From contig JAFZAF010000136.1 in assembly GCA_017548335.1 (NCBI GenBank), positions 1 to 51,955 of the forward strand: a stretch of DNA of 51,955 bases, read 5' to 3'. The translations under genes and the position numbers were made by a program. Positions 10,463-44,183 of the stretch are shown piece after piece (position 1 is the stretch's first letter; every line of letters starts with the position of its first letter). This DNA comes from Bacteroidales bacterium (GTDB lineage: Bacteria; Bacteroidota; Bacteroidia; Bacteroidales; UBA932). The notes under the pieces were generated by a model. It saw nothing but the letters and a program-made list of their open reading frames with translations, searched no databases and was not told where the DNA came from.

Positions 10463-10504
10463 CCTGTTTGCTTGTTAACGGACGGTAAAGATAATAAAGT
10501 ATTT

Positions 10505-10535
10505 TAAAAAAGAAAAACCGGCATTGGAATGCCGG
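10505..10535 (-). terminator. Rho-independent terminator after tRNA-Val
   Basis: On the minus strand, hairpin CCGGCATT..AATGCCGG immediately after the tRNA 3' end, followed by TTTTTTCTTTTTT. Confidence 0.65.
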
Positions 10536-10539
10536 CTTC

Positions 10540-10617: not shown

Positions 10618-10634
10618 GTCTCATTAAGGGACTG

Positions 10635-10642
10635 CAAAAATA
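10635..10642 (-). promoter_or_regulatory. candidate -7 box (TATTTTTG) for tRNA-Val
   Basis: Plus-strand CAAAAATA is TATTTTTG on the minus strand, 18 nt upstream of the tRNA 5' end. Confidence 0.4.
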
Positions 10643-10674
10643 GACCATTTTTGCGAAATTCGCAAATTTTTTCA

Positions 10675-10682
10675 TACCTTTG
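10675..10682 (+). promoter_or_regulatory. candidate -7 box (TACCTTTG) for tRNA-Ser(CGA)
   Basis: TAnnTTTG match 15 nt upstream of the tRNA 5' end. Divergent from the tRNA-Val promoter, with the palindrome TTGCGAA-A-TTCGCAA between them. Confidence 0.4.
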
Positions 10683-10696
10683 CAATCCCATCAACC

Positions 10697-10781
10697 GGTG
10701 AGTTGTCCGAGTGGTTGAAGGAGCCTGCCTCGAAAACAGGTGTACGGCAACGTACCGGGGGTTCGAATCCCTCACTCACCG
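10697..10781 (+). tRNA. tRNA-Ser (anticodon CGA)
   Basis: GGTGAGTTGTCCGAGTGGTTGAAGGAGCCTGCCTCGAAAACAGG... Acceptor GGTGAGT/ACTCACC, anticodon loop CTCGAAA, long variable arm (GTACGGCAACGTAC), T-loop TTCGAAT. CCA is not encoded. Confidence 0.9.
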
Positions 10782-10787
10782 CTCCAG

Positions 10788-10816
10788 GCGTCTGCTTTGC
10801 AGGCGCTTTTCTTTTT
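10788..10816 (+). terminator. Rho-independent terminator after tRNA-Ser(CGA)
   Basis: Hairpin GCGTCTGC-TTT-GCAGGCGC (one mismatch) followed by TTTTCTTTTT. Confidence 0.65.
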
Positions 10817-10834
10817 CGTATATTTGATGTCGAT

Positions 10835-11980: not shown

Positions 11981-11983
11981 GTA

Positions 11984-13078
11984 TCAGATAGTCAGCCACT
12001 CCGTGGAGACAATCCCGGTGAAGACCAGGATGCCCGTGGCAATCAGGGACAGCAGCCACAGCACGAAAATCACCAGCCCGGGGTGCCAGCTCGGCGACTT
12101 GAAGCCGAAGAGCAGCTGCAGCCCTCCGTAAAGGATACCCAGGAAGGGGAGGAAGACCACCAATCCCAGCAGGACGTGGATCCACGGCCGCGCCATCGCC
12201 GCCGCGACGGACGGGGCATAGTAGTGGAGTTCGGCCAGACCCTGGTTGTACAGATGCCCGAGTCCGAACAGCCCGCCGTGCTCCACGACGCCGTGTCCGA
12301 ACAGGCCGCTCCCGAAGCCCAGCACGCCGCTGGCGAAGAGTCCGGAGAAGCCGACGATAACCAAAAGCACGCCGATCAGTTTCCCCAGGACGCCGCCCAT
12401 CTCGCTCCAGGCCTTGGACTGACTCACGGACTTGATGGCGTCGCCGACCTCGCGGGCGCCGTTCTCGATGCTCTGCTGGATGCCCAGCACGGTTCCGTCT
12501 TCGCCCCGCTGCTCCCAGCGCTGCTTGGCGGTCTTGGCCGCCGGCATACAGACCCACAGGATAGCGTACAGCACGGGGAAGAACAGGTGGATGGACAGGT
12601 TCAGGTGCCCGTGGAAGTTCCACTTGAAGACGGACAGCCCGAGCACGGTGAACAGGACGAACAGGATGCGGAACAGGGTCTTGTCCACGTTGAAGTAGGC
12701 ACCCAGGCCGCTGCACACACCTGCGACCACCTTGTCGTTCATATCGCGGTAGAGCTTGCGGCGGGGCTTTTCAACCTTCATTCCGGGCTGCGACCCGGAA
12801 TCTCCCTCCGTCGCGTCCTCCTCCTCGATGACCTCCGGCCGCCCGAGGATGCCGATGATCCGCTCGATGTCGGCGCGGGACACGACCCCGTCGCGCCCGC
12901 ACTTCTCGTGCAGCAGTTCCGCCATCCGCTCCTCGATGCCTTCAATGATCTCGCTGCCGCCCTCGCGGCCGGAATAGAAGATCTCCAACTCGCCGAGGTA
13001 GGAGGCGGCCAGCTGCGAGGCGTCCTGCTCCATCGTGAAGGCGTAGCCGCCCAGGCTCACTTTTTCTACTTCTTTCAT
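11984..13078 (-). CDS. PspC domain-containing membrane protein
   Basis: 364-aa ORF with a PspC-domain signature (KLYRDMNDKVVAGVCSGLGAYFNVDKTLFRILFVLFTVLG) and multiple TM segments. Confidence 0.8.
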   Translation of the reverse strand: MKEVEKVSLGGYAFTMEQDASQLAASYLGELEIFYSGREGGSEIIEGIEERMAELLHEKCGRDGVVSRADIERIIGILGRPEVIEEEDATEGDSGSQPGMKVEKPRRKLYRDMNDKVVAGVCSGLGAYFNVDKTLFRILFVLFTVLGLSVFKWNFHGHLNLSIHLFFPVLYAILWVCMPAAKTAKQRWEQRGEDGTVLGIQQSIENGAREVGDAIKSVSQSKAWSEMGGVLGKLIGVLLVIVGFSGLFASGVLGFGSGLFGHGVVEHGGLFGLGHLYNQGLAELHYYAPSVAAAMARPWIHVLLGLVVFLPFLGILYGGLQLLFGFKSPSWHPGLVIFVLWLLSLIATGILVFTGIVSTEWLTI

Positions 13079-13407
13079 ACGTTCTTAAGGGTTTGGATGC
13101 CGTCTACCAGGTCTTTCCAGGCCTCGTCCATCAGGGCGAGCTGCTCCCGGCCCTTGTCGGAAATCACATAATACTTACGGGGCGGGCCCTGGGTGGATTC
13201 CTCCCAGCGGTAGGACAGCAGGCCCTGGTTCTTCTGGCGGATGAGCAGGGGATAGAGCGTGCCTTCCACGACGATCATCCCCACGGCCTTCAACTCCTCG
13301 ATGATGGAGGAAGCGTAGGCCTCGCGTTTGTTGAGGATCGAGAGGATGCAGTATTCCAGCACCCCCTTCCGCATCTGCGTGCGGACGTTTTCAGCTGTGT
13401 TCTCCAT
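13075..13407 (-). CDS. PadR family transcriptional regulator
   Basis: 110-aa ORF with a winged-helix PadR signature (GVLEYCILSIL...GTLYPLLIRQKNQGLLSYRWEES...PRKYYVISDKG). Confidence 0.9.
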   Translation of the reverse strand: MENTAENVRTQMRKGVLEYCILSILNKREAYASSIIEELKAVGMIVVEGTLYPLLIRQKNQGLLSYRWEESTQGPPRKYYVISDKGREQLALMDEAWKDLVDGIQTLKNV

Positions 13408-13410
13408 AAT

Positions 13411-13983
13411 CTACTTCTTTTTGGAATAAGCGGCGATGTTCTCCGCGGTCACGGGTACGCCGTGCATCTCGCATTTCTGCGTGGGCGTGACGGCCTTCGG
13501 GATGGCAATCCAGCAGATCACATAGAGCCAGAAGCCCGCCGTACCGGCCAGCAGTGCCACCAGCATCAGCACGCGGGCGAGCACAACGTCGATGTCCAGG
13601 TAGATGGCAAGGCCCGCGCACACGCCGGCGATGCGCTTGTTGTCGTAGTCGCGGTAGATTTTCTTGCGGATGTTCGCGTCCGGCTCGGTATTCGCGGACT
13701 CCGCGGCCTTCGGATTCTCCGGGCCGCCGTCCGGCATCCCGAGCTGGCCGGTGACGCGCTCCACGAGAGCGATGTTCACGACCCGGGACTCGTCGCCGAT
13801 CTCCTGCAGGAAGAGTTCCGAAATGCGGGTCTCCAGGTCTTCCATCACCTCCGCGTTCTCGCCGGTGGCCGAGGCGGCCAGACGCGCGCGAAAGTGGCCA
13901 AGGTATTCACTCAGACGCTTATAGGCGTCCTCTTCAATCGCGAAGCTTCTGCTTCCGAGGCTGATGTTCAATACTTTTTTCAT
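13411..13983 (-). CDS. PspC domain-containing protein
   Basis: Start trimmed to the ATG at 13983 (MKKVLNISLG...). PspC signature KIYRDYDNKRIAGVCAGLAIYLDIDVVLARVLMLVALL. Confidence 0.8.
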   Translation of the reverse strand: MKKVLNISLGSRSFAIEEDAYKRLSEYLGHFRARLAASATGENAEVMEDLETRISELFLQEIGDESRVVNIALVERVTGQLGMPDGGPENPKAAESANTEPDANIRKKIYRDYDNKRIAGVCAGLAIYLDIDVVLARVLMLVALLAGTAGFWLYVICWIAIPKAVTPTQKCEMHGVPVTAENIAAYSKKK

Positions 13984-14004
13984 TGTTATAGAACTTTGAC
14001 ACTG

Positions 14005-14012
14005 CAAAGATA
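14005..14012 (-). promoter_or_regulatory. candidate -7 box (TATCTTTG) for the PspC-PadR-PspC operon
   Basis: Plus-strand CAAAGATA is TATCTTTG on the minus strand, 22 nt upstream of the ATG at 13983. Confidence 0.4.
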
Positions 14013-14049
14013 TATAAAAAAATTAATACCTTGTATAGCATAGTACTAA

Positions 14050-14092
14050 AAAATGTAAAAAAATTTTGCCCGACCTGGTAGGGGACGGGCAA
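14050..14092 (-). terminator. Rho-independent terminator ending the capsule operon
   Basis: On the minus strand, hairpin TTGCCCG...CGGGCAA followed by AATTTTTTTACATTTTTT. Lies 17 nt past the stop of the HAD-like gene. Confidence 0.65.
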
Positions 14093-14108
14093 ATTCAAGT
14101 TGGGATCA

Positions 14109-14504
14109 TTAACGGAACATCTTGCCGAACAGGGACTTACGGCGTTTCTTGTGCTTTCGTTCCCGCTTCTTGCAGATAATTTCGTAGATCGTGCCCCAGT
14201 CGGGGAGGCCGCCGATGTTGCGGTCGTCGATATACACGTCCGCGATAATCTTGGTTCCCGCCTGTCCGGCGAATAGGGCACCTGCCGGCTGGTTGCTGTT
14301 CACGGCATAGAAATCCAGGCCGCGTTCGTGGCAGAAGTTGACCGCTTTCTCCAGCAGTTCTCCCTCGCGGGAGGTCCACAGGATCAGCCGGTTGCCGTCT
14401 TCCTGCAGTTGCAGCAGGGTTTCGATGGCGAAGGGCTTCTCCTTGCCGATCTCGGGGTATTTGTGCTCGACGATGGTTCCGTCGAAGTCTACGGCGATAG
14501 TCAT
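14109..14504 (-). CDS. small capless HAD-superfamily phosphatase-like protein with a basic C-terminal tail
   Basis: 131-aa ORF. HAD motif I DFDGT at residues 6-10, motif II-like LWTSR, motif IV-like YIDDRN, and no cap insertion. Tail KKRERKHKKRRKSLFGKMFR. The ATG lies 3 nt after the wzc stop. Confidence 0.7.
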   Translation of the reverse strand: MTIAVDFDGTIVEHKYPEIGKEKPFAIETLLQLQEDGNRLILWTSREGELLEKAVNFCHERGLDFYAVNSNQPAGALFAGQAGTKIIADVYIDDRNIGGLPDWGTIYEIICKKRERKHKKRRKSLFGKMFR

Positions 14505-14507
14505 ATG

Positions 14508-16889
14508 CTAGTTGTTGTCGTTTTCTCCGTAACCATAGCCGTAACCATAGCCGTAACCATAGCCGTAACCATAGCCGTAGCCATAGCCGCCGTAGCCGTA
14601 ACCCCGCTTGAGTTCGGCACCGTTGAAGATGATGGCCATATTCTTCAGACGTCCGCTTTCCTGGATGTCATTCAACTGAGGGAGTATGCGACGGTCCAAC
14701 TGGCCGGCGCGCAGGACGAACAGGTTTACATCCACTACCCGGCTGATGATCATCGGATCTGCGACGACCTGCAACGGCACGCTGTCGAGCAGGACGTAGT
14801 CGTAACGCTTGCGCAGTTCGGAGATAAACTCGTCGAAGCGCTTGCGGCTCAGCAGTTCCGTCGGGTTGGGCGGGATGTGTCCGGCCGGGACGAAGTCCAC
14901 GCCTTCCGCCACTTCCTTTCGGATGATGTCCTCCACCCGGATGCTTTCTTCATAGAGATAGTTGGACAGGCCGGTGGTCTTGTGCTTCAGACCGAACGCC
15001 TTGGAAATGGTCCGCTTGCGGAGGTCAAGGTCCACAAGCACCACCTTCTTCCGGGCATCCGCCAGGCATCGTGCCATATTGGCACTAATAAAAGTCTTAC
15101 CGGCCGAGACGGCAAAGGATGTCGTCGCAATCACGGGATGGTCCACTCCTTCGGGCTTCATAAAATCGAGGTTGGTGCACATCATACGCATCGCCTCGGT
15201 GAAAACGCTTTTGCTTGATGCGTCGTATTTGATGGGGGACTCAGGTTCTTCCGTGTCTTTCTTTTTACGATGGCCCTTTTTCTTGTGTTGTGTAAGCGGG
15301 ATTTCTGCAAGGACCGGCACGGACACAAGTTCCTCGATCTCCTTGCGCGAGCGAACCTTGGTGTCAAGGAAAAGGCGGGCGATGAGGATCACGGCCGGGA
15401 CCAACAGGCCCACCAGCAGGGCTAGCATCAGCATCCTGTTGCGTTGCGGGTAAACCGGAGCCCAGGATCCTTCCGGACTGTCGATCATCCGGGCGTTGTT
15501 GTCGGCCATCGCCTGCGTAAGGGCATTTTCCTCTCGCTTGTTGAGCAGGAAAACATAAAGCTGCTCCTTGATCTGCTGCTGGCGCTCGATGTTCAGCATC
15601 TGCTTGGCCTTGGCCGGCATCGCGGTGAACTTCTGGATGGAGGAGGTCTCCTGGCGGGAGAGGTCCTGCTTTTGGACGTTCAGGCTGGTGAGCAGGTTCT
15701 GGATGATGCCGAGGATATTCTGACGCAGGGATTCGATGTTTCCTTCCACCTGCTTGACTGCGGGGCTGACGGCACTCGAGGCGGCCACCAATTTCTCCCG
15801 GCGCAGGATCAGTTCGTTGTATTGGCTGATGGCCTTGTCGGCATTGGCATCATTGAGGCCAGTGTTCACGGGAATCATCTCGAAAGAACCGATAGAACCC
15901 CGCACATAATCGCGCAGGTACTCGGCAAGGGAGATCCGGGTTTCGATCTGAACGATTTCCGCATTGTAACCGCGGCTCTCGTTAAGGTAGCGGGATGCGG
16001 CTTCGTCCACATCCATAATCCGCTGGGAACTCTTGAATGCGGCCAGGTTATCTTCCACGGCACCCAGTTCGTCCTGGATGATGACCAGGCGCTCGTTGAT
16101 GAAAGCGGCGGTGTTCACGGCCACGCGGTTCTTCTCCCGGATGGCGTCTTCGTTATACTTCTCAATCAGCACGTTGAGGATATCGCAGGCACGTTGGACA
16201 TTGAAATCCTGCTGCGAAAGGGAGAGGATATTGGAGTCCTGGCTGATCTGCAACCGGGACAGGAATGACGCCGCCTGTTGTTGAGAGGGCACCTTCCGGA
16301 CGGTGATCATACGCCCGAAAGCGGCTTCGTTGTAGAAGGATGTGGGTTGGAAAACGGCCCGACCACCGGCCAGGGCGATAGTATCGCCCAAGGCAACCTT
16401 CTGCGTGGCGTTACCGATTACAAGTTGGAGGGTCTTGGCGTCCAGCGGAGTTACTTGTGCGACGAACGGGCCGGGCTCTTCACCGTCCTCACGGGAGAAA
16501 AAGAGACGTATCGGCGCATTGCGGTAAAGTTCGATGTCGCGAAGGCGGATATGTTGCTTATAATCGATGTCGGCATCCAGGGAACGTACCACCTCGGTCA
16601 TCATCGCCTTTGATTGCAGCTGAAGCATTTCATTGCTCATACTGACGGTGTTGATGATGTTGCTGTAGTTGTCCATCCGGACAGAACGGGTGGAGTTGGT
16701 CGGGTCCTTGATAATGACCGTTACGTTGCTCCGGTAGAGCAACGGACTTTTGGAATAGCGGTACCAGGCATAGCCTACGGCAAGGGCTGCGCAGAGCAGG
16801 AACCAGTACCAATGGCTCAAAAGGTAAAAGAACAGGTCGACCAAATTGACTTGTTCTCCGCGGGAATTCTTTTTCAGGGAGGTATCCAT
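14508..16889 (-). CDS. wzc: polysaccharide co-polymerase / tyrosine autokinase (Wzc, BY-kinase)
   Basis: 793-aa ORF. Has an N-terminal Wzz-like chain-length domain with two TM segments. Carries Walker A (SAGKTF), Walker A' (VVLVDLDLRKR) and Walker B (YVLLDSVP). C-terminal Tyr cluster GYGYGGYGYGYGYGYGYGYGYGYGYGENDNN. Confidence 0.9.
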   Translation of the reverse strand: MDTSLKKNSRGEQVNLVDLFFYLLSHWYWFLLCAALAVGYAWYRYSKSPLLYRSNVTVIIKDPTNSTRSVRMDNYSNIINTVSMSNEMLQLQSKAMMTEVVRSLDADIDYKQHIRLRDIELYRNAPIRLFFSREDGEEPGPFVAQVTPLDAKTLQLVIGNATQKVALGDTIALAGGRAVFQPTSFYNEAAFGRMITVRKVPSQQQAASFLSRLQISQDSNILSLSQQDFNVQRACDILNVLIEKYNEDAIREKNRVAVNTAAFINERLVIIQDELGAVEDNLAAFKSSQRIMDVDEAASRYLNESRGYNAEIVQIETRISLAEYLRDYVRGSIGSFEMIPVNTGLNDANADKAISQYNELILRREKLVAASSAVSPAVKQVEGNIESLRQNILGIIQNLLTSLNVQKQDLSRQETSSIQKFTAMPAKAKQMLNIERQQQIKEQLYVFLLNKREENALTQAMADNNARMIDSPEGSWAPVYPQRNRMLMLALLVGLLVPAVILIARLFLDTKVRSRKEIEELVSVPVLAEIPLTQHKKKGHRKKKDTEEPESPIKYDASSKSVFTEAMRMMCTNLDFMKPEGVDHPVIATTSFAVSAGKTFISANMARCLADARKKVVLVDLDLRKRTISKAFGLKHKTTGLSNYLYEESIRVEDIIRKEVAEGVDFVPAGHIPPNPTELLSRKRFDEFISELRKRYDYVLLDSVPLQVVADPMIISRVVDVNLFVLRAGQLDRRILPQLNDIQESGRLKNMAIIFNGAELKRGYGYGGYGYGYGYGYGYGYGYGYGYGENDNN
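14529..14603. repeat. in-frame 12-bp tandem repeat encoding the (GY)n tail of Wzc
   Basis: GTAACCATAGCC repeated four times perfectly (14529-14576), followed by the degenerate units GTAGCCATAGCC and GCCGTAGCCGTAACC. Confidence 0.95.
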
Positions 16890-16896
16890 AAGGTAA

Positions 16897-17673
16897 TTAG
16901 AGGCGTTTTGCCAATATGAAAAGGGTGGTGATAGCTGTGGTCGCGGTAAACAGAGGCGTCAAAGCGGACATGATGGCTGTCATATTACTGGAGGAACGGA
17001 GGCCGCGAGGCTTCACATAGACGATGTCGTTCTGCCGGAGATAGAATACGGGCGAATCGAAAAGGCTCTTGGACTGCAGGTTGATGGAGTAGGCCATACG
17101 TACTCCTTCTTCCGTCCGGATGACCATTACGTCGGGAATCTTGGAATGTTCGTCAGTGCCTTGGGAACGGGCGAGGACCTGAAGGATATTGATGCTGCTG
17201 CCTTCGACAGGCATCACGCTCTGGCCTGTTTCTCCCAAAACCGTAATGGTGAAGTTCTCCATCTCCACGTTCACGATAGGTTCCCGGATATAGCCCAGGC
17301 GGACTATTTCGGATGCCACCCAGTCTTCCACCTCCTTCAGGGTCTTGCCCAGGATGTGCATCGTGCCCAATACCGGGAACTGGATGTCACCGTTTTTGTC
17401 CACCGTATAGATGGTGGCCGTGGTCAGCGCCTGTCCGGATTCTCCCACAAGGCCGTTACCTACGTTGAAAGGCGCCGCCAGTTCCGCATCGGTACTGTAA
17501 ACCTGGATGCTGATCCTGTCATCCACCTGCAGGCGCAGTTCAGGAGCCGGTTTGGCAAGGTAGGGTGTGTCATATTCCAAATCTCGCAGATAAGCGAGTT
17601 TGGCGGGAGTGGTGCAGGATGCCGCCAGCACGACGAATGCCGTCAGCATCAACCATTTAACATTTCCTTTCAT
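16897..17673 (-). CDS. wza: polysaccharide export outer-membrane protein (Wza-like)
   Basis: 258-aa ORF with a lipoprotein signal (LAASC). Poly_export-like region (LRLQVDDRISIQVY...FNV...YTVDKNGDIQFPVLG) and an SLBB-like segment. Sits next to wzc. Confidence 0.85.
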   Translation of the reverse strand: MKGNVKWLMLTAFVVLAASCTTPAKLAYLRDLEYDTPYLAKPAPELRLQVDDRISIQVYSTDAELAAPFNVGNGLVGESGQALTTATIYTVDKNGDIQFPVLGTMHILGKTLKEVEDWVASEIVRLGYIREPIVNVEMENFTITVLGETGQSVMPVEGSSINILQVLARSQGTDEHSKIPDVMVIRTEEGVRMAYSINLQSKSLFDSPVFYLRQNDIVYVKPRGLRSSSNMTAIMSALTPLFTATTAITTLFILAKRL

Positions 17674-18811
17674 AAATATCTGTCATTTTATCTATCATAC
17701 CTTGTGCGGTAAACATCCGCTCAAACCTCATCCTGGCTCCTTCAGCGTAGCTCTGCCAGGCCTCCCGGTCGTCGCAGATACGGCGGATGGCATCGGCCAG
17801 TGCTTCCGGATCGCCCGGCTCCACGTTCAGGCCCGACACGCCGTCCTCGTTCACCCAGGACACGCCCGAGGCGGGAATCCGCGTGGCCACCACCGGCTTT
17901 CCGCAAGACATCGCCTCGATCTGTACGATACCGAACGCCTCCGTCTTCATCACGGAACTCAGTACGAAAACGTCGCAGGCTCCGTACAACGCCGGCAACT
18001 CGTCATCGGGCACATATCCCAGCAACTTCACCCGCCCGTGCAGGTCGAGGGAGTCGATCTGCGCCTGCAGGCTTTCCCGCAGCGGCCCCATCCCGCCGAT
18101 AAGCACCTGATAGTCCTCTCCCAGCAAGGCGGAGGCCTCAATCAGGGTATCGTATCCCTTGTAAGGGATAAGGCGCCCCAAAGATACAACAATTTTTTTG
18201 CCCGGATAGCGGTTTTTTACCGCTAAGGCCGTATTTTCTTCAAATTGCAGAGGTTGGATGCCGATGGGGACATAGGTAACCTTGTCCTGCACTCTCTGCA
18301 GGGCAGGGGATTCGCGGACATAGACGGGTGTCGTTCCGACAATCAGTCCGGCCCGGCGGATCAGCCAGGATTGAAGCGGACGATATAGCGCGAGCAGAGT
18401 TTTCTGCGACAGGATATCACTGTGCCAATGCAGGATGACCGGTCCGCGGAAACCGCTCAGCCGCAGGGCGATCGCAGCCATCGGGTCGGGATGGTGGATG
18501 TGAATCAGGTCGTATTCCGCAGCGTGCCGGCGCAGCCAGCGCACCATCGCCGGGGAGATCATCGTGGCAGCTTTCTTGGCGATGGCCGGCACGCAGATGA
18601 CGCGTCCGCAGTCGTTGAACCGGATGATCTTCCCTTCCGGTGTAAGGGTGCAGCGGGGCTGGTCCGGCACGTCTACGGGGTCGGTCTTCAGCGTAGCGCA
18701 GAGCATATCGCACGGGATGCCGCGCTCCGACAGGCCGCGGGTCAGATCCCACATCACCTTCTCCACGCCGCCGCGGATGGGGTAGAATTTACCGAGTTGC
18801 AAGATCTTCAT
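17657..18811 (-). CDS. glycosyltransferase family 4
   Basis: Start trimmed to the ATG at 18811 (MKILQLGKFYPIRGGVEKV). Has a GT4 C-terminal domain with an E-x7-E motif (EAFGIVQIEAMSCGKPVV). Confidence 0.85.
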   Translation of the reverse strand: MKILQLGKFYPIRGGVEKVMWDLTRGLSERGIPCDMLCATLKTDPVDVPDQPRCTLTPEGKIIRFNDCGRVICVPAIAKKAATMISPAMVRWLRRHAAEYDLIHIHHPDPMAAIALRLSGFRGPVILHWHSDILSQKTLLALYRPLQSWLIRRAGLIVGTTPVYVRESPALQRVQDKVTYVPIGIQPLQFEENTALAVKNRYPGKKIVVSLGRLIPYKGYDTLIEASALLGEDYQVLIGGMGPLRESLQAQIDSLDLHGRVKLLGYVPDDELPALYGACDVFVLSSVMKTEAFGIVQIEAMSCGKPVVATRIPASGVSWVNEDGVSGLNVEPGDPEALADAIRRICDDREAWQSYAEGARMRFERMFTAQGMIDKMTDIYERKC

Positions 18812-36419: not shown

Positions 36420-36574
36420 ATCTGTATTGAATTATTTGTTCGGATTTTACGGCTTCGCCGTCGGGCCTGTCAGGCAGACTCGGGGCTGAAACTATGAAAT
36501 GGAGACACCATTCCAACGGCAAAGTTAATGCAATCTGCCGGAAAAACAAGAGCGCAACGCGATTTTTTGCACTA

Positions 36575-36841
36575 TTATTCTTCGACGAGGCCCGCTGCAA
36601 GCCATTCGCAGGCGATGTCGCGGGCGGCTGCCGCCGCTTCGTCCAGCCCGACCTCGTATTCGTCGAGCAGAAGAGCGGTAAGATCGTCTACGCCGAATTC
36701 ACGCCCTTCGACCCCGTGCCACAGGAATGCGGCCGAGGAGTTGAGGCTCACGAGCCGCTGGAAATCCACGGTCAGGCCCTCGCCGGTCACGATGTGCTCG
36801 TCGCCGAGCTCCCGCAAGACAAAACCTTCTTTCAGATGCAT
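36575..36841 (-). CDS. PqqD-family protein (RiPP recognition element-like peptide-binding domain)
   Basis: About 88 aa from the ATG at 36841 (the track ORF extends to 36859). The pattern LKEGFVLRELGDEHIV...VSLNSSAAFLWHGV.G.EF.VDDLTALLLDEYEV..DEAAAAARDIACEWLAAGLV matches the PqqD winged-helix family. Confidence 0.75.
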   Translation of the reverse strand: MHLKEGFVLRELGDEHIVTGEGLTVDFQRLVSLNSSAAFLWHGVEGREFGVDDLTALLLDEYEVGLDEAAAAARDIACEWLAAGLVEE

Positions 36842-36845
36842 AGTA

Positions 36846-36881
36846 CAAAGATACGTCATTTCACCGAATTTCCGTATCTTT
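36846..36881. promoter_or_regulatory. back-to-back divergent -7 boxes forming a 9-bp inverted repeat
   Basis: AAAGATACG (36847-36855) and CGTATCTTT (36873-36881). They read TATCTTTG toward the PqqD gene (minus) and TATCTTTA toward the nucleotidyltransferase gene (plus, 20 nt before the ATG at 36901). Confidence 0.45.
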
Positions 36882-36900
36882 ACCCCGAAATCTCCACTTG

Positions 36901-37902
36901 ATGCCGGACCGGACGGACATATTCTTCGCGCTGCTGCGCGCGGGCCTGTGGGAGCAGGACCTGCGCCTGCACTCCGCGCTTGCCGCGGAAGACTGGCAGG
37001 TCATCTTGCAGACTGCCCGGCAGCAGGCGGTGCTGGGGCTGGTCTATCGCGGTATTGCGCATCTTCCTGAAGATCAGATGCCTCCGGCGGATGTGCGGCT
37101 CCGCCTCCTTGCGGAAATCGACCGCATCGAACGCCGGGGCCGGCGGATGGAGGAAGCGCAGCAGGAACTGCTCCGGCGCTTCCGCGACGCCGGCCTGCAT
37201 CCGCTGGTGCAGAAGGGGAGCGAAGCGGGGAAGTATTACCCCCAGCCGCTGCTGCGCGAGTGCGGCGACATCGACCTATATTTCGCGGGTAAGGAATTCG
37301 ACCAGGCGAAGGCGCTGCCGCCCGGCGTACGCACGGCCCCGGACGGCGCGGGCGTCTTTACCTTCCGGGACGTGACCGTGGAGCTGCACTCCCGCTACTT
37401 CGACCTGCATCTGCCGGATGCGAAACTCCCTGAAGTTCCTTCCGTCTTTGCCGAACTGCTGTTGCTCTCCGCCCACATCCTCAAGCACGCCATCGGAGCC
37501 GGGGTGGGCTGCAAGCAGCTCTGCGATATGGCCGTCGCGCTGGACCGCACGGATGGGCAGTATGACAAGGAGCTGCTGGAAAAGTATTTGAAGGCCGCCG
37601 GGCTGCTCTGCTGGCACCGCGTACTCTGCTCGCTGCTTGTCTCCGATTTCGGGCTCGATCCCGCCCGCTGCCTGCCGGATTTCAAGCCCTGCAACCCCGC
37701 CCCGCTGCGCCGCATCGTGCTGTCTGGCGGTGCATTCGGGCTTTTCGACCCGACGCGCGAAAAGGCCGTCCGTTCCGGCAAGGTGGCCCGGAAACTGCAG
37801 GCGGCCGCATCATTCCTGAAACGCCTGCCGTTCTCGCTGCGCGTGGCGCCGCGGGAAACCTTCGCCACCATCGGCGAACTCATTAAAGGGAATCTGTCCT
37901 AG
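36901..37902 (+). CDS. uncharacterised nucleotidyltransferase family protein (NTP_transf_5-like, Pol-beta fold)
   Basis: 333 aa from the ATG at 36901 (the track starts at a TTG at 36898). NTase signature KGSEAG...ECGDIDLYF (hG[GS]...DxD). N-terminal FFALLRAGLW helical region typical of this family. The only plus-strand gene inside the capsule region. Confidence 0.75.
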   Translation: MPDRTDIFFALLRAGLWEQDLRLHSALAAEDWQVILQTARQQAVLGLVYRGIAHLPEDQMPPADVRLRLLAEIDRIERRGRRMEEAQQELLRRFRDAGLHPLVQKGSEAGKYYPQPLLRECGDIDLYFAGKEFDQAKALPPGVRTAPDGAGVFTFRDVTVELHSRYFDLHLPDAKLPEVPSVFAELLLLSAHILKHAIGAGVGCKQLCDMAVALDRTDGQYDKELLEKYLKAAGLLCWHRVLCSLLVSDFGLDPARCLPDFKPCNPAPLRRIVLSGGAFGLFDPTREKAVRSGKVARKLQAAASFLKRLPFSLRVAPRETFATIGELIKGNLS

Positions 37903-39215
37903 AACTTCCTGCCACCCACGATGCGCAGGAAGGTAAGCGCGAGCAGGCGTGCGTCGAACCAGATGGAGTGGTTCCTCAGATAATAAAGGTCCAGTTCGAG
38001 CCGCGTCAGCATCTTGTCCAACGTGTCGGTGTAGCCGTTGTACAGCGTGGCGTAGCTGGTCACACCCGGGCGAATCTGGAACAGGTAGCGGTAGCGCGGG
38101 TTCACCGCCATAATCTGGTCGATGTAGAACTGCCGCTCGGGGCGGTAGCCGATGAAGGACATATCGCCGCGGAAGACGTTCCACAGCTGCGGAAGCTCGT
38201 CCAGGTGGTGCTGGCGCAGGAATTTGCCCACCTTGGTCAGGCGCGGATCATCGTCACCGGCATAAAGAGCCGGGGCGCCGGAAGCTTCGGCGTCGATACG
38301 CATCGAACGGAATTTCAAGATGTTGAAGGGCTTGCCACCGCGCCCCATCCGCTCCTGCGAGTAGATGGCCGGGCCGCCGTCTTCCCGCTTCACGGCCAGG
38401 GCGCAGATAAGCGCCAGCGGCGAAAAGACGATGAGCAGCAGGCCGGAGAGCACGATGTCGAAACTGCGCTTCACGGCGTGTCCTGCCAGAGACATCGCGT
38501 CGTTGTTGGGGATGTCCGAGCCGACACCGCCCGTTCCGGCTTCGCGGTCGCCGTCTTCTCCCTTGGGGAACAGGATGCAGTCCACCCCGCCCAGGCGCCA
38601 TTGCAGGGCGTTGATTTCTTCGGGCGTGGCCGCGGCATAGACGATGCGGTTGCCGATGACCTTGCCTGCGTCGGCGGGATCTCCGGAGATGTAGCCCAGC
38701 ACGGAATAGCGGCCGGACGCCTCCGACTCGTCCGCCAGGGTCACGGATTCCCTCCCGATGCCGGCCACCAGGGCGCTGGCGCGGCCCGTCGCGGCGTGGA
38801 TCTCGCGCTCCTCCCGCCAGAGGCTGCGCACCAGGAGACGGGGCGCGAACAGGGCCACGGTGGTAAAGACCAGGTCGCTCAGCAGGGCCACGACGGCCAG
38901 GGTGCTGGAGGGCAATTTCAACAGGCCCACGAACACGAGGACGAGCATTCCGGCTTCCTTGATCAGGATTGCACGACCAAGGCGGCGGTAGCCTCGCAGG
39001 GAAGCGTACCGGGTGACGACCCGTGTGCTTCCCGTAAAGAGCAGCCCCAGCAGGGTGAGCAACGCACCGCAGCCGGTCCACCAGGCCACGACGACGATGA
39101 ACCCGAAGAACGGCTCGGACACGGCGCGCATCATCAGGATAGCCGCCAGCGACGCCATAGCCGACAGCAGGGTATCTACTGTCAGGCGTCGGCGGAGTGC
39201 GCGTTTCTCGTTCAT
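37899..39215 (-). CDS. undecaprenyl-phosphate sugar phosphotransferase (initiating transferase, WbaP/WcaJ-like)
   Basis: 438-aa ORF with N-terminal TM segments. C-terminal Bac_transf domain (KRSFDIVLSGLLLIVFSPL...PFNILKFRSM...DPRLTKVGKFLRQHHLDELPQLWNVFRGDMSFIGYRPE). Confidence 0.92.
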   Translation of the reverse strand: MNEKRALRRRLTVDTLLSAMASLAAILMMRAVSEPFFGFIVVVAWWTGCGALLTLLGLLFTGSTRVVTRYASLRGYRRLGRAILIKEAGMLVLVFVGLLKLPSSTLAVVALLSDLVFTTVALFAPRLLVRSLWREEREIHAATGRASALVAGIGRESVTLADESEASGRYSVLGYISGDPADAGKVIGNRIVYAAATPEEINALQWRLGGVDCILFPKGEDGDREAGTGGVGSDIPNNDAMSLAGHAVKRSFDIVLSGLLLIVFSPLALICALAVKREDGGPAIYSQERMGRGGKPFNILKFRSMRIDAEASGAPALYAGDDDPRLTKVGKFLRQHHLDELPQLWNVFRGDMSFIGYRPERQFYIDQIMAVNPRYRYLFQIRPGVTSYATLYNGYTDTLDKMLTRLELDLYYLRNHSIWFDARLLALTFLRIVGGRKF

Positions 39216-39471: not shown

Positions 39472-39479
39472 TAAATTTG
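39472..39479 (+). promoter_or_regulatory. candidate -7 box (TAAATTTG) for the UpxY-like operon
   Basis: TAnnTTTG match 70 nt upstream of the ATG at 39549, with a TTG-containing element about 20 nt further upstream. Implies a 5' leader of about 60 nt. Confidence 0.45.
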
Positions 39480-39548: not shown

Positions 39549-40082
39549 ATGTCTTCCACTCAGTCGAATAGGCCTGTTTCCGAGGTCCGCTGGTTCGCGG
39601 CGCGCACGCGCTGCGGATCGGAGTTGTCCGTTGCCGGACGGCTGGAGAAACTGGGTGTGGAGAGTTTCCTTCCCACGGTAAAACTCACTCGTACGCGCGG
39701 GCACGTCCCTTATGAACGCGCGTTGATTCCGAGTCTGGTGTTCCTGCGGACTACCAAGGAGCGGGCTTGTGAACTCGCCAACCGCGAGGCCGTGCCGGTG
39801 AAATACCTGATCGACCCTGCCACCCGTACCCTGATGGTTGTCCCGGACAAGCAGATGGACGACTTCCGCCGTGTGCTGGACCTCTCGACCGACGAAGGCG
39901 GCCTGATCGACCGCCCTCTGGCGTTGGGAGACCGCGTCCGCGTGGTGAAGGGCGTGCTGGCCGGCGTGGAAGGCTATGTGCTGGAGTTCAAGGGCCGCAC
40001 CTATGTGGTGGTGCGCCTGCTGGACAGCTGGTTCGCCAAGGCCAGCGTACCCCGGGCCTGGTTGGAGCCGATAGACAAATAG
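39549..40082 (+). CDS. UpxY-family transcription antiterminator (specialised NusG paralog)
   Basis: 177-aa ORF. NGN-like N-terminus (VRWFAARTRCGSELSVAGRLEKLGVESFLPT) and a KOW motif (GDRVRVVKGVLAGVEGYVLEF). Size and pattern match the Bacteroidales UpxY/NusG-like family. Confidence 0.85.
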   Translation: MSSTQSNRPVSEVRWFAARTRCGSELSVAGRLEKLGVESFLPTVKLTRTRGHVPYERALIPSLVFLRTTKERACELANREAVPVKYLIDPATRTLMVVPDKQMDDFRRVLDLSTDEGGLIDRPLALGDRVRVVKGVLAGVEGYVLEFKGRTYVVVRLLDSWFAKASVPRAWLEPIDK

Positions 40083-40103
40083 AAGACGAAACGAAATAAA
40101 TTT

Positions 40104-40286
40104 ATGCATAAAATGAAAAAGAAAAAACAATTCGTAAGGCCGGCCGTCCTGCAGGATCTTTCCCTCCTGCCGGAGACGCCGATCCTTGCCGGTTCGGTCG
40201 TGGACAATGCGACTATTGTCTCCACCGGCCAGGAAGTCGAGAACTACGACTTTTCTGGAGAGGATTTTAATCACAATTGGGAATAG
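40104..40286 (+). CDS. hypothetical small protein (mini-ORF 1, ETPIL motif)
   Basis: 60-aa ORF (MHKMKKKKQFVRPAVLQDLSLLPETPILAGS...). Starts 21 nt after upxY-like and ends 12 nt before the next lipoprotein gene. Shares a motif with an unlisted ORF at 46177-46317. Confidence 0.5.
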   Translation: MHKMKKKKQFVRPAVLQDLSLLPETPILAGSVVDNATIVSTGQEVENYDFSGEDFNHNWE

Positions 40287-40298
40287 GAGGACCAGGCA

Positions 40299-41831
40299 AT
40301 GCTTATGAAAGGAAAATCCATACTCCTCCTGCTCGCAGCAGGGACCCTCTTCCTGGCGGGATGCCAGAAGACGGGTTTGACCGACGGCACCGGCAGCAAT
40401 GGCTCCATCCGTTTCTCCGCCACCGCCAGTTCCGTAGGCACCAAGACCGCCTATGGCGACTACGACAACGAAACGAATCCCACGTGGCAGGTCGTCAACT
40501 GGGTTACGGGCGACAAACTCCGTATCTACAGCGACAAGGCCGTTCACCGCTACGCGAATATCAATTATGCCGATTATGAGATTGTCGGTGAGCCGACCGT
40601 CTCCGGTCACGAGAGCAAGGCCACGATCGAAGGAACCTCCCTGGACAACGAAACCGTTCCCGGAGGCCTCGACAACGGCGCGGATATGCGCAACGGCCTG
40701 ATCTGGGGCGACGAGCCGGATACGTACACCTTCTACGGTATCTATCCGTCCACCGACTGTGCATCCGGCACTTCCGGTACGCTGAACGGATCGATCGCTG
40801 CCGACCAGGGCACCGGCGACCTCGAGGTGAATATGCCGAAGTACGGTTTCCTGACCGCCGCGCAGCAGATCACCCTGAAGGCCACCGATTTCGACAGCAA
40901 CAACGCCGTGACTCCTCTGAAGGACGGCGGCCCCAACGTCGAAATGCGCTTCGAGCCCGCCTTCACCGCCATCGAGGTGACGCTGAAGAGCACCCAGGCC
41001 AACACGGTCCTTACGGGCGCGTCCCTGGTGTCCTCCTCTACGGCCCTTGCCGGTGACTTCACGGTCGCATACACCGCGGGCACGAGCGGCTTTACGAAAG
41101 CCATTGACTGCAAGTCCGCTACCGGGAAGTCGGTCTCCATCTCCGGCCTCACCGCCACCATCGGCCCGGATGCGCCCTACACCTTCACGCTCTTCGCCTT
41201 GCCGCAGGACCTGAAGGACCTGGAGCTTGTGTTTGATATCCAGAATGCACAGTCCCGTCATCTTGCCCTGAAGAAGAACAATCAGTACCTTACCTTTGCC
41301 GCCTGCAAGAAGCATCGTATCTATGGGCTGCAGATGCCCGACGGCACCTGGACCCTTTACCTTCAGTCCGAGGTGGCGGAGTGGGAAGACAATGCCAAGA
41401 ACCCGAAATACGGTGAGGCGGACGACGAAGGCGCCATCATCAGCGCCGGCGCCCTGGAGTTCGTCTCCGGATTCTCCGGTTCCCCGAGTCGTACCTCCGC
41501 TACGCTGGAGTCGGCCTCGTCTCCGCTGGTCGCTTACTACTCCGTGTATTCTCCTACCAACGGTACGTGGAGGATTACGATGAAGGGAGAGAAAGCTTCT
41601 TCCTTCACGCTGGCATCGCCCAATGTCGAAGGCGCTTCCGCGTCCGGTGATGGTAAGTACATCGAGGGCCCGGTGGACCAGCGCGTGTTCTTCCAGGTGT
41701 CTGCCAACGACGGCGCCGCCTCCGGCGACAGCGTCGAACTCTGGTTCACGGTCCTCGTCGGGGACAAGGAATACAGCCTCCATTCCGAGGTCACCCGCAG
41801 CCAGCTGCCTCTTACCGTCAAGATGCCTTAA
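40299..41831 (+). CDS. fimbrillin-like (Mfa-like) surface lipoprotein
   Basis: 510-aa ORF with a lipoprotein signal (LFLAGC). The N-terminal pattern IRFSATASSVGTKTAYG...W..GDKLRIYS resembles Bacteroidales fimbrillin-family proteins. Motif-level call only. Confidence 0.6.
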   Translation: MLMKGKSILLLLAAGTLFLAGCQKTGLTDGTGSNGSIRFSATASSVGTKTAYGDYDNETNPTWQVVNWVTGDKLRIYSDKAVHRYANINYADYEIVGEPTVSGHESKATIEGTSLDNETVPGGLDNGADMRNGLIWGDEPDTYTFYGIYPSTDCASGTSGTLNGSIAADQGTGDLEVNMPKYGFLTAAQQITLKATDFDSNNAVTPLKDGGPNVEMRFEPAFTAIEVTLKSTQANTVLTGASLVSSSTALAGDFTVAYTAGTSGFTKAIDCKSATGKSVSISGLTATIGPDAPYTFTLFALPQDLKDLELVFDIQNAQSRHLALKKNNQYLTFAACKKHRIYGLQMPDGTWTLYLQSEVAEWEDNAKNPKYGEADDEGAIISAGALEFVSGFSGSPSRTSATLESASSPLVAYYSVYSPTNGTWRITMKGEKASSFTLASPNVEGASASGDGKYIEGPVDQRVFFQVSANDGAASGDSVELWFTVLVGDKEYSLHSEVTRSQLPLTVKMP

Positions 41832-41843
41832 TTGGAAAGGAAT

Positions 41844-44168
41844 ATGAAAAAGATTATCGCATATATCTTCGCAGGAGCCGTCCTTATGCTTGCGGCGTCC
41901 TGCACTTGGGAGCCCGTCGACCCGAACGCCGAAGGCAATGAATTCGCCCTGCAGGTCTACTGCTCGGAACTTACGAAGGCGGGTACTACGCCGGGCGAGG
42001 GCAACGAGAACAAGGTTGTCTCCCTGGACTACTTCTTCTTTGCCAACGCTGAGTCCGGCGCCGCCGTGTTCCACTATCGGGACGCCGCCCCTTCCGCCAC
42101 TTCCGGAAAGTACCAGGGAATCTTCACGCCTGGTAACACCTATGGTGGAAACGAGTTCCCGACCCGCGAGGTCCTTTACGGCTCCAACGATTTCACGACG
42201 GTGTTCGTCGTCGCAAACCTGCGTTCGGTTCCGACGACTCTTCCTACATTGGAGGATCTCAAGGCCATCGCAATTGATCAGTCCTTTATGTCTGACGGTG
42301 CAGCCCTCGCTACCGACAGCGCCGATATGGAGTTCGTGATGACGGCCGAAGCCGAGGTCCGGGGCAATGTGTCCGGAGTCTTCACGACCCTCGGCCTCGA
42401 GCGCCTGGCGGCCAAGATGGTTTTCAACGTCAAGGTTGCCAAGGAGGTGTCCCTTTCGGGCACGCTGGACGGCGACGGAGGCACTTATACGGAGACGTGG
42501 ACGCCGATGCTGAACGGCAACAACGTCCGCGTTTATCTGCAGCAGGCCGTCACCAATACCGTGCTGGGTGTCGCCGACGGCGAGCACTACCCTGCTTCGA
42601 TAACCCAGACTGACTACAATCCAATCGTGCCCGCCAGTTGGAGTGACAACGAGACGACGGTAGGACCGTTCTATTCCTTCGCCACATCCTGGGACGACAA
42701 CCTCGCCCAGGCTCCTTTCGGAAAGATCATCGTTCCCTGGAAGGTCGTCCGCAAGGACGCCAACGGCAACGTGTTCTACTCCGCCCAGCGCGAGGTCTAT
42801 TACAAAGTAATGCTGCCTGACACTGAGATTCTGGCCAACAACTTCTACCAGTTCACCGTGGACATTACGGTGGTGGGTACCGAGACGGATCCCGAGGTGA
42901 CCATCGACGCCACCTATCAGGTGGCCGACTGGACCACCGGCGGCGCCGGCAAGGTGAACACCCAGATCAGCGACATCAAGTACCTGACCGTGGACCGCAA
43001 GCAGGAGAACGCCAACGGCATCATCGATGTCTATGTTCAGGGCGCGCAGGTGCAGTATTCCGCATCGGAAACGGCGGTGATTGACTGGGATGTTTCCAGC
43101 ATCTATTACCTGGATTATATTACCACTGGGTTGACGGACCATAAGCGTTATATCATCCAGAATGGTACGCTCAATACGAATAATGGAAAGAATATCACCA
43201 GTTTGGATGCAGCGAAGGCCTGGGTTGATCTGACTGAAGTCGAGAATCCTAATTCCGAGATTCCGGACACCTATATCACGTTGAACCACGCCTTGATCAA
43301 CGACCTGACCAACACCTATTTCGATGCCTCCCCGTATTTCTATGAAATAACCGTTAGGTTGTCCACGGGAGGTGCCGACCCCAAGACCGTCATCTTCAAG
43401 CAGTATCCGCAGAGCTACATCGAGGAGATGCCGAATACGGGGAACGATATGCATCAGGTCGGTTCTGGCTGGAGTGCTCAGAATGTTGATTTTGGCTATG
43501 TTTATGTGAATGGCGGTCACAATGGTTCGAATAACTATGGTGGTGTCCACGGGTTGACAGGCCAAAACACCAACCCTAATATGTATGTCATTACGACGTC
43601 GGTTTTGAGCGATTCTCAAAAGACGATAGGCGACCCCCGTATCGCAAAGGGGCAGTATGACTTGATTGATAATACCCAATTCAACAGCGCCCCGGTTGTA
43701 TCTGGTGGTTCCAATCGACGTTTGACATACTATAAGCGAGCCGAAACCAGTGACAGGAGCCGTTATATGATTGCTCCGGCGTTCCGAGTAGCGTCATCTT
43801 ATGGTGTTACCAATTCTCTTTCCTATGCCAATGGCAGCCGCCGTTGTGCTTCTTATCAGGAGGATGGTTATCCGGCCGGACGCTGGCGCCTGCCGACGGC
43901 TGCGGAAATCGAGTATTGTGTGACATTGTCAGCCAAGGGCAGGTTGCCTGTTTTGTTTGGCGATAGTAATAGCCAGACCGCATCAACTGATTATTGGAGT
44001 GCAAATGGTTATATTACGGTCGTAGGGAGCAGCGTGACTCCTCATATTGGAACTTTCACCGGGGATAATAGATATGTCCGTTGCGTGTACGACGAGTGGT
44101 ATTGGGGACCCGACCGTGTGACGGCCGCACAGCACGCCTTTATGTGGGGAGATGAACAGGATCAATAA
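41844..44168 (+). CDS. fimbrial/adhesin-like lipoprotein with a C-terminal DUF1566/Fib_succ_major-like domain
   Basis: Start trimmed to the ATG at 41844 (MKKIIAYIFAGAVLMLAASC). FimA-like N-terminal pattern (NENKVVSLDYFFFA). The C-terminus (CASYQEDGYPAGRWRLPTAAEIEY...DYWSANG...RYVRCVYD) matches the WRLPT / YWS / VRCV pattern. Confidence 0.6.
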   Translation: MKKIIAYIFAGAVLMLAASCTWEPVDPNAEGNEFALQVYCSELTKAGTTPGEGNENKVVSLDYFFFANAESGAAVFHYRDAAPSATSGKYQGIFTPGNTYGGNEFPTREVLYGSNDFTTVFVVANLRSVPTTLPTLEDLKAIAIDQSFMSDGAALATDSADMEFVMTAEAEVRGNVSGVFTTLGLERLAAKMVFNVKVAKEVSLSGTLDGDGGTYTETWTPMLNGNNVRVYLQQAVTNTVLGVADGEHYPASITQTDYNPIVPASWSDNETTVGPFYSFATSWDDNLAQAPFGKIIVPWKVVRKDANGNVFYSAQREVYYKVMLPDTEILANNFYQFTVDITVVGTETDPEVTIDATYQVADWTTGGAGKVNTQISDIKYLTVDRKQENANGIIDVYVQGAQVQYSASETAVIDWDVSSIYYLDYITTGLTDHKRYIIQNGTLNTNNGKNITSLDAAKAWVDLTEVENPNSEIPDTYITLNHALINDLTNTYFDASPYFYEITVRLSTGGADPKTVIFKQYPQSYIEEMPNTGNDMHQVGSGWSAQNVDFGYVYVNGGHNGSNNYGGVHGLTGQNTNPNMYVITTSVLSDSQKTIGDPRIAKGQYDLIDNTQFNSAPVVSGGSNRRLTYYKRAETSDRSRYMIAPAFRVASSYGVTNSLSYANGSRRCASYQEDGYPAGRWRLPTAAEIEYCVTLSAKGRLPVLFGDSNSQTASTDYWSANGYITVVGSSVTPHIGTFTGDNRYVRCVYDEWYWGPDRVTAAQHAFMWGDEQDQ

Positions 44169-44183
44169 TTATAGAGGACAATT

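Follow-up and report, generated by a model that had tools for sequence, protein, structure and literature searches.

Linear polyphosphorylated peptide (LPP) gene clusters are embedded in the capsule loci of Bacilli (Popov et al., Nat Commun 2026; PMC13381572). They encode LppB, a recognition element (RRE) for peptides that are made on ribosomes and modified after translation (RiPPs), together with the kinase LppK, LppN, an "uncharacterized NTP transferase", an SpI-like peptidase and an MsbA-like pump, and the Ser of the precursor motif YxxPxVLxHQxIxFETxxS is polyphosphorylated (PMC13381572). LPPs were reported to be restricted to Bacillota, and their function is not known (PMC13381572). The discrete RREs of lasso and LPP systems bind a [Y/W]xxPx[L/V/I/F/A] leader motif, in which Asp70 of LppB hydrogen-bonds the leader Tyr, while the Trp-preferring PbaB1 has Gln79 at this place (PMC13381572). 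In lasso-peptide tailoring of the paeninodin/pseudomycoidin type, a kinase (PadeK/PsmK) phosphorylates a Ser, and the nucleotidyltransferase PsmN, the only assayed putative relative in these papers, attaches one or two hexoses to that phosphate (PMC8498205). Here we analyzed a divergent gene pair in a 51,955-nucleotide stretch of Bacteroidales DNA (GenBank assembly GCA_017548335.1, contig JAFZAF010000136.1; hereafter the window), in which a small PqqD-family gene and an NTP_transf_5 (PF14907) nucleotidyltransferase (NTase) gene lie inside a capsule locus.

We favor, at a probability of roughly 0.55, the explanation that the pair belongs to a module for modifying ribosomal peptides, resident in Bacteroidales Wzx/Wzy-type loci, to which it contributes the RRE and a tailoring enzyme, and that a small peptide encoded in the same window is the substrate (coordinates in Table 1). 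The PqqD protein would bind the N-terminal FxxPxVL of the peptide by strand addition and present the region of its invariant Ser28 to the NTase. The NTase, in turn, would attach a nucleotide-derived group. This would be either a nucleoside monophosphate joined straight to the hydroxyl, or else a sugar or nucleotide linked to a phosphate that a kinase encoded elsewhere had added. Our confidence in any specific NTase chemistry is low.

The small open reading frame (ORF) is a genuine PqqD/RRE protein. A first-pass annotation, made from the letters of the DNA, had described a minus-strand PqqD-family ORF of ~88 amino acids (a.a.) and had named failure in PqqD profile searches as grounds for refutation; the protein scored 39.5 bits against Pfam PF05402, above the gathering cut-off of 23.4. 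The ORF spans 36575..36859, and an ATG at 36859 would give 94 a.a.; since the homologues are almost all 88 a.a. long, the ATG at 36841 (MHLKEG...) is most likely the start. The AlphaFold2 model (pLDDT 90.5) is a winged helix with the order beta-beta-beta-alpha-alpha-alpha (strands 7-12, 15-20 and 30-33; helices 35-44, 51-61 and 66-83), and its best structural matches were the lasso B1 proteins TbiB1 (TM 0.76-0.79) and TfuB1 (TM 0.73), both solved with a bound leader. A sequence search of the PDB with the single PqqD sequence returned nothing meaningful; the family profile matched TfuB1 best (E=7e-8), and TbiB1 and two entries of 2026 that fit PbaB1 and LppB ranked next. The protein is predicted to bind a leader through a motif of the [Y/W]xxPx[L/V/I/F/A] type. 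Both genes of the pair are under purifying selection, with a pN of 0.056 and a pS of 0.49 for PqqD between the window and the related locus L006.

The reading of the partner as a 333-a.a. Pol-beta-fold NTase on the plus strand (KGSEAG...GDIDLYF) also held, with 101.3 bits against PF14907 (cut-off 31.2). The Pol-beta nucleotidyltransferase signature, G[GS] followed by DxD, is present as K105-G106-S107 and G122-D123-I-D125. K105, G106, G122, D123, D125, H163, H192, H196, Q206 and D209 do not vary among 70 aligned sequences with identities as low as 20%, so that the enzyme is very probably active. Its AlphaFold2 model (pLDDT 94) comprises an N-terminal helical domain, the Pol-beta core and a C-terminal helical domain. 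Foldseek with this model found no close solved structure, the core only resembling CCA-adding enzyme, TM1012 and FKRP at a TM of ~0.2, and a sequence search of the PDB gave nothing meaningful; likeness to LicD/FKRP did not extend beyond the NTase core (~100 aligned residues for FKRP, E>=0.2). The structure gives no pointer to the chemistry. The homologues, which number in the hundreds, are labelled PF14907 and nothing more, and a literature search found no earlier description of PF14907, nor of PqqD in Bacteroides capsule loci. Long homologues (447-489 a.a.) considered as PqqD-NTase fusions were rejected, as their miscalled starts extend the reading frame antisense across PqqD. In L059 (8898-10556), PF14907 is naturally fused to a PAP2 lipid-phosphate phosphatase domain (protein P0223), and the same locus contains Bac_transf, genes for an outer membrane protein (OMP) beta-barrel and an epimerase, and a fusion of GHMP kinase with NTP_transferase. 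The PAP2 fusion is a hint that the substrate of some PF14907 members is linked to a lipid phosphate.

A genome scan with the NTase-homologue alignment yielded 49 loci, all from Bacteroidales metagenome-assembled genomes, mostly of the rumen and gut, except four: L053 (Bacillota), L054 ("uncultured bacterium"), L051 (labelled Anaerotignum) and L052 (a Proteiniphilum). Neighbors were counted over 50 non-redundant loci, using a PqqD-family hidden Markov model (HMM) and single-sequence profiles of the window neighbors. PqqD adjoins the NTase in 28 of them (20 co-directional and mostly overlapping, 7 divergent and 1 at 2.3 kb), so that the co-occurrence analysis proposed in the first-pass annotation showed the two genes to be conserved neighbors, ancestrally in an overlapping operon. 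The most constant neighbor of the NTase is the initiating transferase Bac_transf (within 10 kb in 40/50 loci), and UpxY lies within the same distance in 27/50. In a neighbor-joining NTase tree, the commonest and deep arrangement is PqqD followed by the NTase, co-directional, usually overlapping and directly 3' of a short Bac_transf; in the subclade of the window, PqqD is inverted, which produced the divergent pair. The capsule-locus setting that the annotation had noticed is conserved across Bacteroidales families.

Some clades depart from this order. In one clade without PqqD (L014, L015, L019 and L021), a secreted GDSL/SGNH hydrolase gene takes its place (~9230-9970, minus strand); in another, the NTase is 3' of Wza, Wzc and a BT0820-family HAD phosphatase. 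This phosphatase (131-137 a.a.) is found between Wzc and the NTase in the kinase-less loci L026, L028, L030-L033 and L063, the L026 protein matching NCBIfam NF046079 at 180 bits, above the cut-off. L063 has a divergent 83-a.a. PqqD between the phosphatase and the NTase.

The relatives of the pair belong to a fuller operon. In the Bacteroides-, Prevotella- and Muribaculaceae-type operons, the genes are glycosyltransferases, Bac_transf, PqqD, NTase, a P-loop protein of 290-337 a.a., Wza and Wzc. The P-loop protein (GxSGTGKST) is encoded directly 3' of the NTase in 14 Bacteroidales loci, with two more copies in the Bacillota locus L053, and carries the invariant signature HAS...GxSGTGKST...NDDNP...PWSGK. 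Among 13 aligned members, including both L053 copies, 12 matched the NCBIfam models for ScmC and HprK-related kinase A, 11 those for PEPCK and 8 that for HprK-related kinase B, all weakly and below cut-off (best E=2e-6); the best PDB profile match was PEPCK, around the P-loop. We read the protein as a putative kinase of the HprK/PEPCK superfamily. An assignment as a Wza paralogue was rejected, because one fused ORF (L036) had joined both clusters and the sequence and NCBIfam matches are HprK/PEPCK-like. Ancestrally, the genes stood in the order Bac_transf, PqqD, NTase, HprK-like kinase, Wza, Wzc. The window pair is a reduced member of this larger conserved Bacteroidales module, which is related to the LPP and paeninodin tailoring systems. 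The description of the pair as an orphan, minimal two-component system consequently fails as an account of its origin, given the kinase directly 3' of the NTase in its relatives and the candidate substrate in the window.

In Pfam scans covering all large ORFs of the 52-kb window, kinases, cyclases, proteases, radical-SAM enzymes and ABC exporters were absent, and hmmsearch detected no kinase homologue in the window or in window-type loci. For an SpI-like (SipW-type) peptidase, the scanned window proteins gave no signal peptidase I family match, the sole LspA (Peptidase_A8) being a housekeeping protein; for an MsbA-like exporter, the same scans found no ABC_membrane or ABC_tran protein. No SpI-like peptidase or MsbA-like exporter was present in any Bacteroidales locus with annotated genes, and the lasso B2 transglutaminase-like protease and C asparagine-synthetase-like cyclase were absent from the Pfam matches in the window and the annotated neighbor loci. 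The first-pass annotation was accordingly right about the missing cyclase, protease, radical-SAM enzyme and transporter, whereas its statement that the window has no recognisable precursor gene failed, as a strong candidate lies at 40113..40286 on the plus strand. Its remark that NTP_transf_5 genes occur in lasso-type clusters agrees with published systems (PMC8498205; PMC13381572) and with L053, in which positions 9977-18442 encode PqqD and an ABC exporter along with a PF14907 NTase, and also two tandem copies of a unit made up of an HprK-like kinase, a radical-SAM enzyme and a YxxP small ORF (MKKEY[EL][KA]P...ARFEVSEYLTTS). The L053 cluster, which looks like an LPP variant with radical-SAM enzymes, combines these components and so places PF14907 enzymes in lasso/LPP-type clusters.

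The candidate substrate was first flagged by neighbor clustering as an ORF of ~60 a.a., and jackhmmer from the window copy recovered it in window-type, PqqD-less and Bacteroides-type loci. The conserved short ORFs that the earlier annotation had suggested seeking near orthologs thus proved to be a peptide family of 57-60 a.a., found by a stop-to-stop search in 40 of 67 sources (66 fetched loci and the window). It is present in 27/50 NTase loci and in 15 of the 25 with at least 9 kb on both sides, in differing gene orders. A full-library phmmer search (E<=1e-3) gave 143 cluster representatives at 50% identity, nearly all 54-65 a.a. long and aligned end to end; the family has no Pfam or NCBIfam model. 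The number of representatives, the coding-sequence calls in public records and a pS far above pN in four comparisons (e.g., 0.74 versus 0.17 and 0.31 versus 0.027) indicate that the ORF is a real gene.

The logo of 142 peptide sequences shows a Lys-rich start, Tyr (112) or Phe (25) at position 7, Pro10 (133/142), Val/Ile12 and Leu13, followed by Glu21, Leu25, Ser28 (138/142), Gly39-Gln40 and Trp56 (142/142). The N-terminal motif [Y/F]7-x-x-P10-x-[VI]-L fits the motif bound by lasso and LPP RREs. Judged by eye, the window copy (FVRPAVLQDLSLLPETPILAGS) shares P+3, V+5, L+6, E+14 and T+15 with the LPP consensus; the Pro, the hydrophobic residue at +5, L+6 and E+14 are family-wide, whereas T+15 is not. 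The peptide gene is directly 5' of a large lipoprotein gene everywhere and comes after UpxY in loci of the window type; two loci (L062 and L033) contain two such peptide cassettes each. An HMM of the leader alone gave weak candidates in L040, L024, L027, L053 and a window ORF at 46177, which were inseparable from reversed-sequence decoys. This second short ORF (46177-46317, plus strand; ...MARRVYLPPECFVVDISTETPILQFSTKDWEEKPGEI) has a YxxP and an ETPIL...S stretch as in the main peptide and lies just 5' of a gene for a 1192-a.a. protein, with its own TAnnTTTG boxes (46075 and 46135); its HMM score was non-significant (E=2.2), and no homologue was found in the fetched loci.

Co-variation suggests a connection between the peptide and the PqqD protein. 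In HMM alignments, LppB D70 and PbaB1 Q79 both align to PqqD position 72, which is Ala in the window and Asp in the family consensus. Position 72 was Asp in all 10 loci with a Tyr-type peptide and non-Asp in all five readable lineages with a Phe-type peptide: Ala in the window, L007 and L008, Ser in L009 and Gln in L063. The Phe-type peptide of L009 was hidden within a long ORF and recovered by a later search. In a further Phe-peptide locus (L062), PqqD runs past the end of the fetched DNA; its NTase and the one of L006, where PqqD carries Ala72, share 99.7% identity. L063 represents an independent event, since its NTase is just 38% identical to that of the window. Hence the pairing of Asp72 with Tyr and of non-Asp with Phe reflects two co-transitions that arose independently and holds without exception in the 15 lineages, suggesting that the PqqD protein reads this peptide. 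Look-ups of three more Phe-type peptides led to stand-alone cassettes without PqqD and added no further co-variation events. The alternative given in the first-pass annotation, co-option of the PqqD fold to deliver a non-RiPP substrate, need not be invoked, given that the Tyr-reading residue varies together with a peptide made on ribosomes.

Several observations weigh against a peptide-modifying role for the pair. The co-variation rests on two evolutionary events, and conservation extends over the full peptide instead of a leader only, which is not typical of RiPP precursors. In the NTase tree, PqqD was lost and the NTase kept in at least two, probably three, clades, and these PqqD-less clades retain the peptide with an intact YxxP motif, so that neither the motif nor the NTase is strictly dependent on this RRE. 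The peptide also occurs apart from the enzymes: in an outward search, five of seven distinct contexts (L064-L069) were stand-alone cassettes with no NTase within 10 kb, in which the peptide precedes large Mfa-like or FimE_C-type lipoprotein genes far from NTase, PqqD and Bac_transf. The existence of these cassettes makes the downstream lipoprotein genes the tightest partner of the peptide, and the family may serve lipoprotein operons in general. Conversely, the loci L038, L039, L044, L045 and L050 have PqqD, NTase and kinase and showed no peptide within 10 kb in the available flanks. Finally, an LPP-type pathway cannot run as published in the window, because the kinase, leader peptidase and exporter are absent, and LppN was inactive in the only LPP-cluster experiment (PMC13381572).

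Part of this evidence would fit an NTase that acts in the polysaccharide pathway, on a sugar, sugar-phosphate or undecaprenyl-phosphate-linked intermediate (e.g., by LicD/FKRP-like phospho-alcohol transfer from an NDP-activated donor), with PqqD as a dispensable accessory and the peptide unrelated. The catalytic residues are all kept in the clades that lack PqqD and kinase, Bac_transf is the most constant NTase neighbor, and the PAP2-fused homologue shares its locus with Bac_transf and a sugar-1-phosphate nucleotidylyltransferase. In Prevotella, the NTase P0234 (90% cluster of 816 sequences from 329 contigs) follows a CapD-like dehydratase, and its fetched loci showed no called PqqD and no kinase- or peptide-family match. 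FKRP is among the Foldseek core matches, but only as the weak, ~100-residue match described above. This alternative further leaves the RRE-peptide co-variation unexplained, and the ancestral operon translationally couples the NTase to the RRE and the HprK-like kinase, a trio known only from peptide-tailing systems. We regard a glycan or lipid-phosphate substrate as unlikely, although the PqqD-less clades, the peptide-less loci, the stand-alone cassettes, the constant place of the peptide before lipoprotein genes, its full-length conservation and the polysaccharide contexts of more distant PF14907 homologues without an RRE keep it in consideration.

A regulatory switch appears improbable. NTase-fold enzymes commonly adenylylate hydroxyl groups, and PqqD could in principle dock on a peptide-like tail of Wzc, Bac_transf or UpxY so that the NTase AMPylates or UMPylates that protein and tunes capsule output. 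Genes for Bac_transf, Wza, Wzc and UpxY surround the pair in every case, and a window without kinase, peptidase or exporter fits intracellular regulation; yet no [Y/F]xxP docking motif turned up in Wzc, Bac_transf or UpxY, although no search aimed at one was made, the pair persists while these neighbors change their form (short versus long Bac_transf) and orientation, and a dedicated, motif-bearing small peptide exists that co-varies with the RRE. We give similarly little credence to a self-contained two-gene system with its target elsewhere in the genome and a peptide belonging solely to the lipoprotein operon, an idea that was the main reading of the first-pass annotation and draws on the cassettes far from any NTase and on complete enzyme operons without a peptide within 10 kb, but runs against the proximity of peptide and NTase (within 10 kb in about 60% of loci, in several gene orders), the match of its motif to the lasso-type RRE binding motif and a rule for position 72 that holds in 15/15 readable lineages.

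The features around the pair are listed in Table 1. The spacing of 59 bp given in the first-pass annotation is exactly the ATG-to-ATG gap. This spacer contains a perfect 9-bp inverted repeat, AAAGATACG (36847-36855) and CGTATCTTT (36873-36881) separated by 17 nt, and both arms are outward-facing Bacteroidetes-type -7 boxes. On the minus strand, the box TATCTTTG (36846-36853) ends 4 nt before the PqqD ATG, a distance suggesting that the PqqD mRNA is leaderless or nearly so; on the plus strand, the near-consensus box TATCTTTA (36875-36882) is 18 nt before the NTase ATG.

Table 1 Location of the gene pair, the candidate substrate and adjacent features in the window
Feature	Position	Strand	Basis or remark
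PqqD-family RRE protein, 88 a.a.	36575..36841	-	PF05402 match
Divergent promoter region, 59 bp between the PqqD and NTase ATGs	36842-36900	.	Promoter function inferred
NTP_transf_5 (PF14907) Pol-beta-fold NTase, 333 a.a. from ATG	36901..37902	+	Pfam; ORF opens at 36898
Polyprenyl-phosphate glycosylphosphotransferase (Bac_transf initiating transferase)	37899..39215	-	PF02397, 201 bits
UpxY-like NusG paralogue	39549..40082	+	PF02357; TAAATTTG box at 39472-39479
Candidate substrate/precursor peptide, 57 a.a. (60 a.a. from ATG 40104): MKKKKQFVRPAVLQDLSLLPETPILAGSVVDNATIVSTGQEVENYDFSGEDFNHNWE	40113..40286	+	Directly 3' of UpxY

The NTase and Bac_transf genes are convergent and overlap by 4 bp. Beyond PqqD, the minus strand encodes an OMP beta-barrel protein, OmpA, a Wzx flippase, ~12 glycosyl- and acyl-transferases, Wza and a Wzc-like protein; the capsule genes of the window are a Wzx/Wzy-type polysaccharide locus. 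From the stop of PqqD to the start of the OMP beta-barrel gene (36420-36574, minus strand), the sequence is conserved in seven loci. A TAnnTTTG box of its own (36520-36527) lies in this stretch, along with two conserved elements that resemble hairpins (GGAATGG...CCATTTC as well as ACGGC-GAA-GCCGT), and the stretch looks like a structured 5' untranslated region of the OMP/OmpA genes. A small ORF in this interval was considered and rejected, the conserved region being promoter and hairpins.

The capsule genes are on the strand opposite to the operon headed by the UpxY-like gene (within 39549-49942, plus strand), which contains the small peptide and Mfa-like and other large lipoprotein genes, not glycosyltransferases. 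Downstream of the lipoprotein operon, a 1192-a.a. protein with Big_2 and Y_phosphatase3 (tyrosine-phosphatase) domains is encoded in an apparently separate transcription unit, which has promoter boxes of its own and lies behind a hairpin resembling a terminator. This hairpin is GC-rich and followed by a T-run (46001-46030; CCGCCGCCCGAACTGGGCGGCGGTTTTTAT), and lies 3' of a gene for a 598-a.a. protein, like an intrinsic terminator between two transcription units.

Beyond the pair itself, we tentatively entertain a wider interpretation, to which we assign clearly less weight than to the peptide-modification module: a widespread, undescribed Bacteroidales system in which a 57-a.a. peptide is modified (phosphorylated, nucleotidylylated or glycosylated) with a lasso-type RRE, an HprK-like kinase and a PF14907 enzyme. 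Instead of a secreted antibiotic, the product might be a primer, carrier or checkpoint linking capsule initiation and export (Bac_transf, Wza and Wzc) to the expression or assembly of type-V-pilin-like lipoproteins. The presence of an RRE usually serves to flag a natural-product cluster; in the present case, an RRE sits in the conserved core of the capsule locus, beside the initiating transferase, across many gut and rumen Bacteroidales. A Bacteroidales counterpart, if true, would broaden the LPP class and tie it to capsule and surface-lipoprotein biology in the dominant gut phylum, and would bring with it a defined family of precursors, which counts more than 140 sequence clusters and lacks a Pfam or NCBIfam model. 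The peptide is a concrete candidate substrate for the uncharacterized PF14907 enzymes, and the natural variants without kinase or PqqD offer a ready-made dissection of which steps need which partners.

Among the known systems, the module shares its gene-trio logic with the HPr-rel-A system (TIGR04352, kinase A; TIGR04353, PqqD family peptide chaperone), and within NCBIfam these models are the best or nearly the best matches of PqqD and the kinase from Bacteroides-type loci. These matches are below the curated cut-offs (25 versus 35 bits for the L040 PqqD, the kinases also falling short), and the window PqqD had no match to the HPr-rel-A models at E<=0.01. With paeninodin/pseudomycoidin tailoring, the likeness lies in an RRE that is nearest to the lasso B1 proteins TfuB1 and TbiB1 in both sequence and fold, and in a tailoring set of nucleotidyltransferase and HprK-like kinase, there acting on a Ser, with PsmN as the presumed counterpart of the NTase. 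In contrast to those clusters, the window and the annotated related loci have no B2 protease and no C macrolactam synthetase, and since both are absent, no lasso can form.

The closest comparison is with the LPP clusters. The present system differs in occurring in Bacteroidales, and because its annotated loci lack a peptidase and exporter and the window clade lacks a kinase, it cannot be filed as an LPP cluster. Its peptide has the near-invariant Ser at +21 from the Tyr/Phe, not at +18 as in LPP, is conserved over its whole length with an invariant Trp near the end, and is always encoded 5' of large Mfa-like lipoprotein genes, often behind UpxY; the L053 peptides look intermediate by eye. Nevertheless, both systems combine a discrete PqqD-type RRE with an NTP transferase in a capsule locus, to which the Bacteroides-type relatives add an HprK-like kinase. 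Judged by eye, the LPP precursor and the candidate precursor here are also alike in an N-terminal YxxPx[V/I]L, an acidic +14 position and a conserved Ser placed ~18-21 residues beyond the Tyr, and the same RRE position (D70 in LppB, 72 here) tracks the aromatic residue of the motif.

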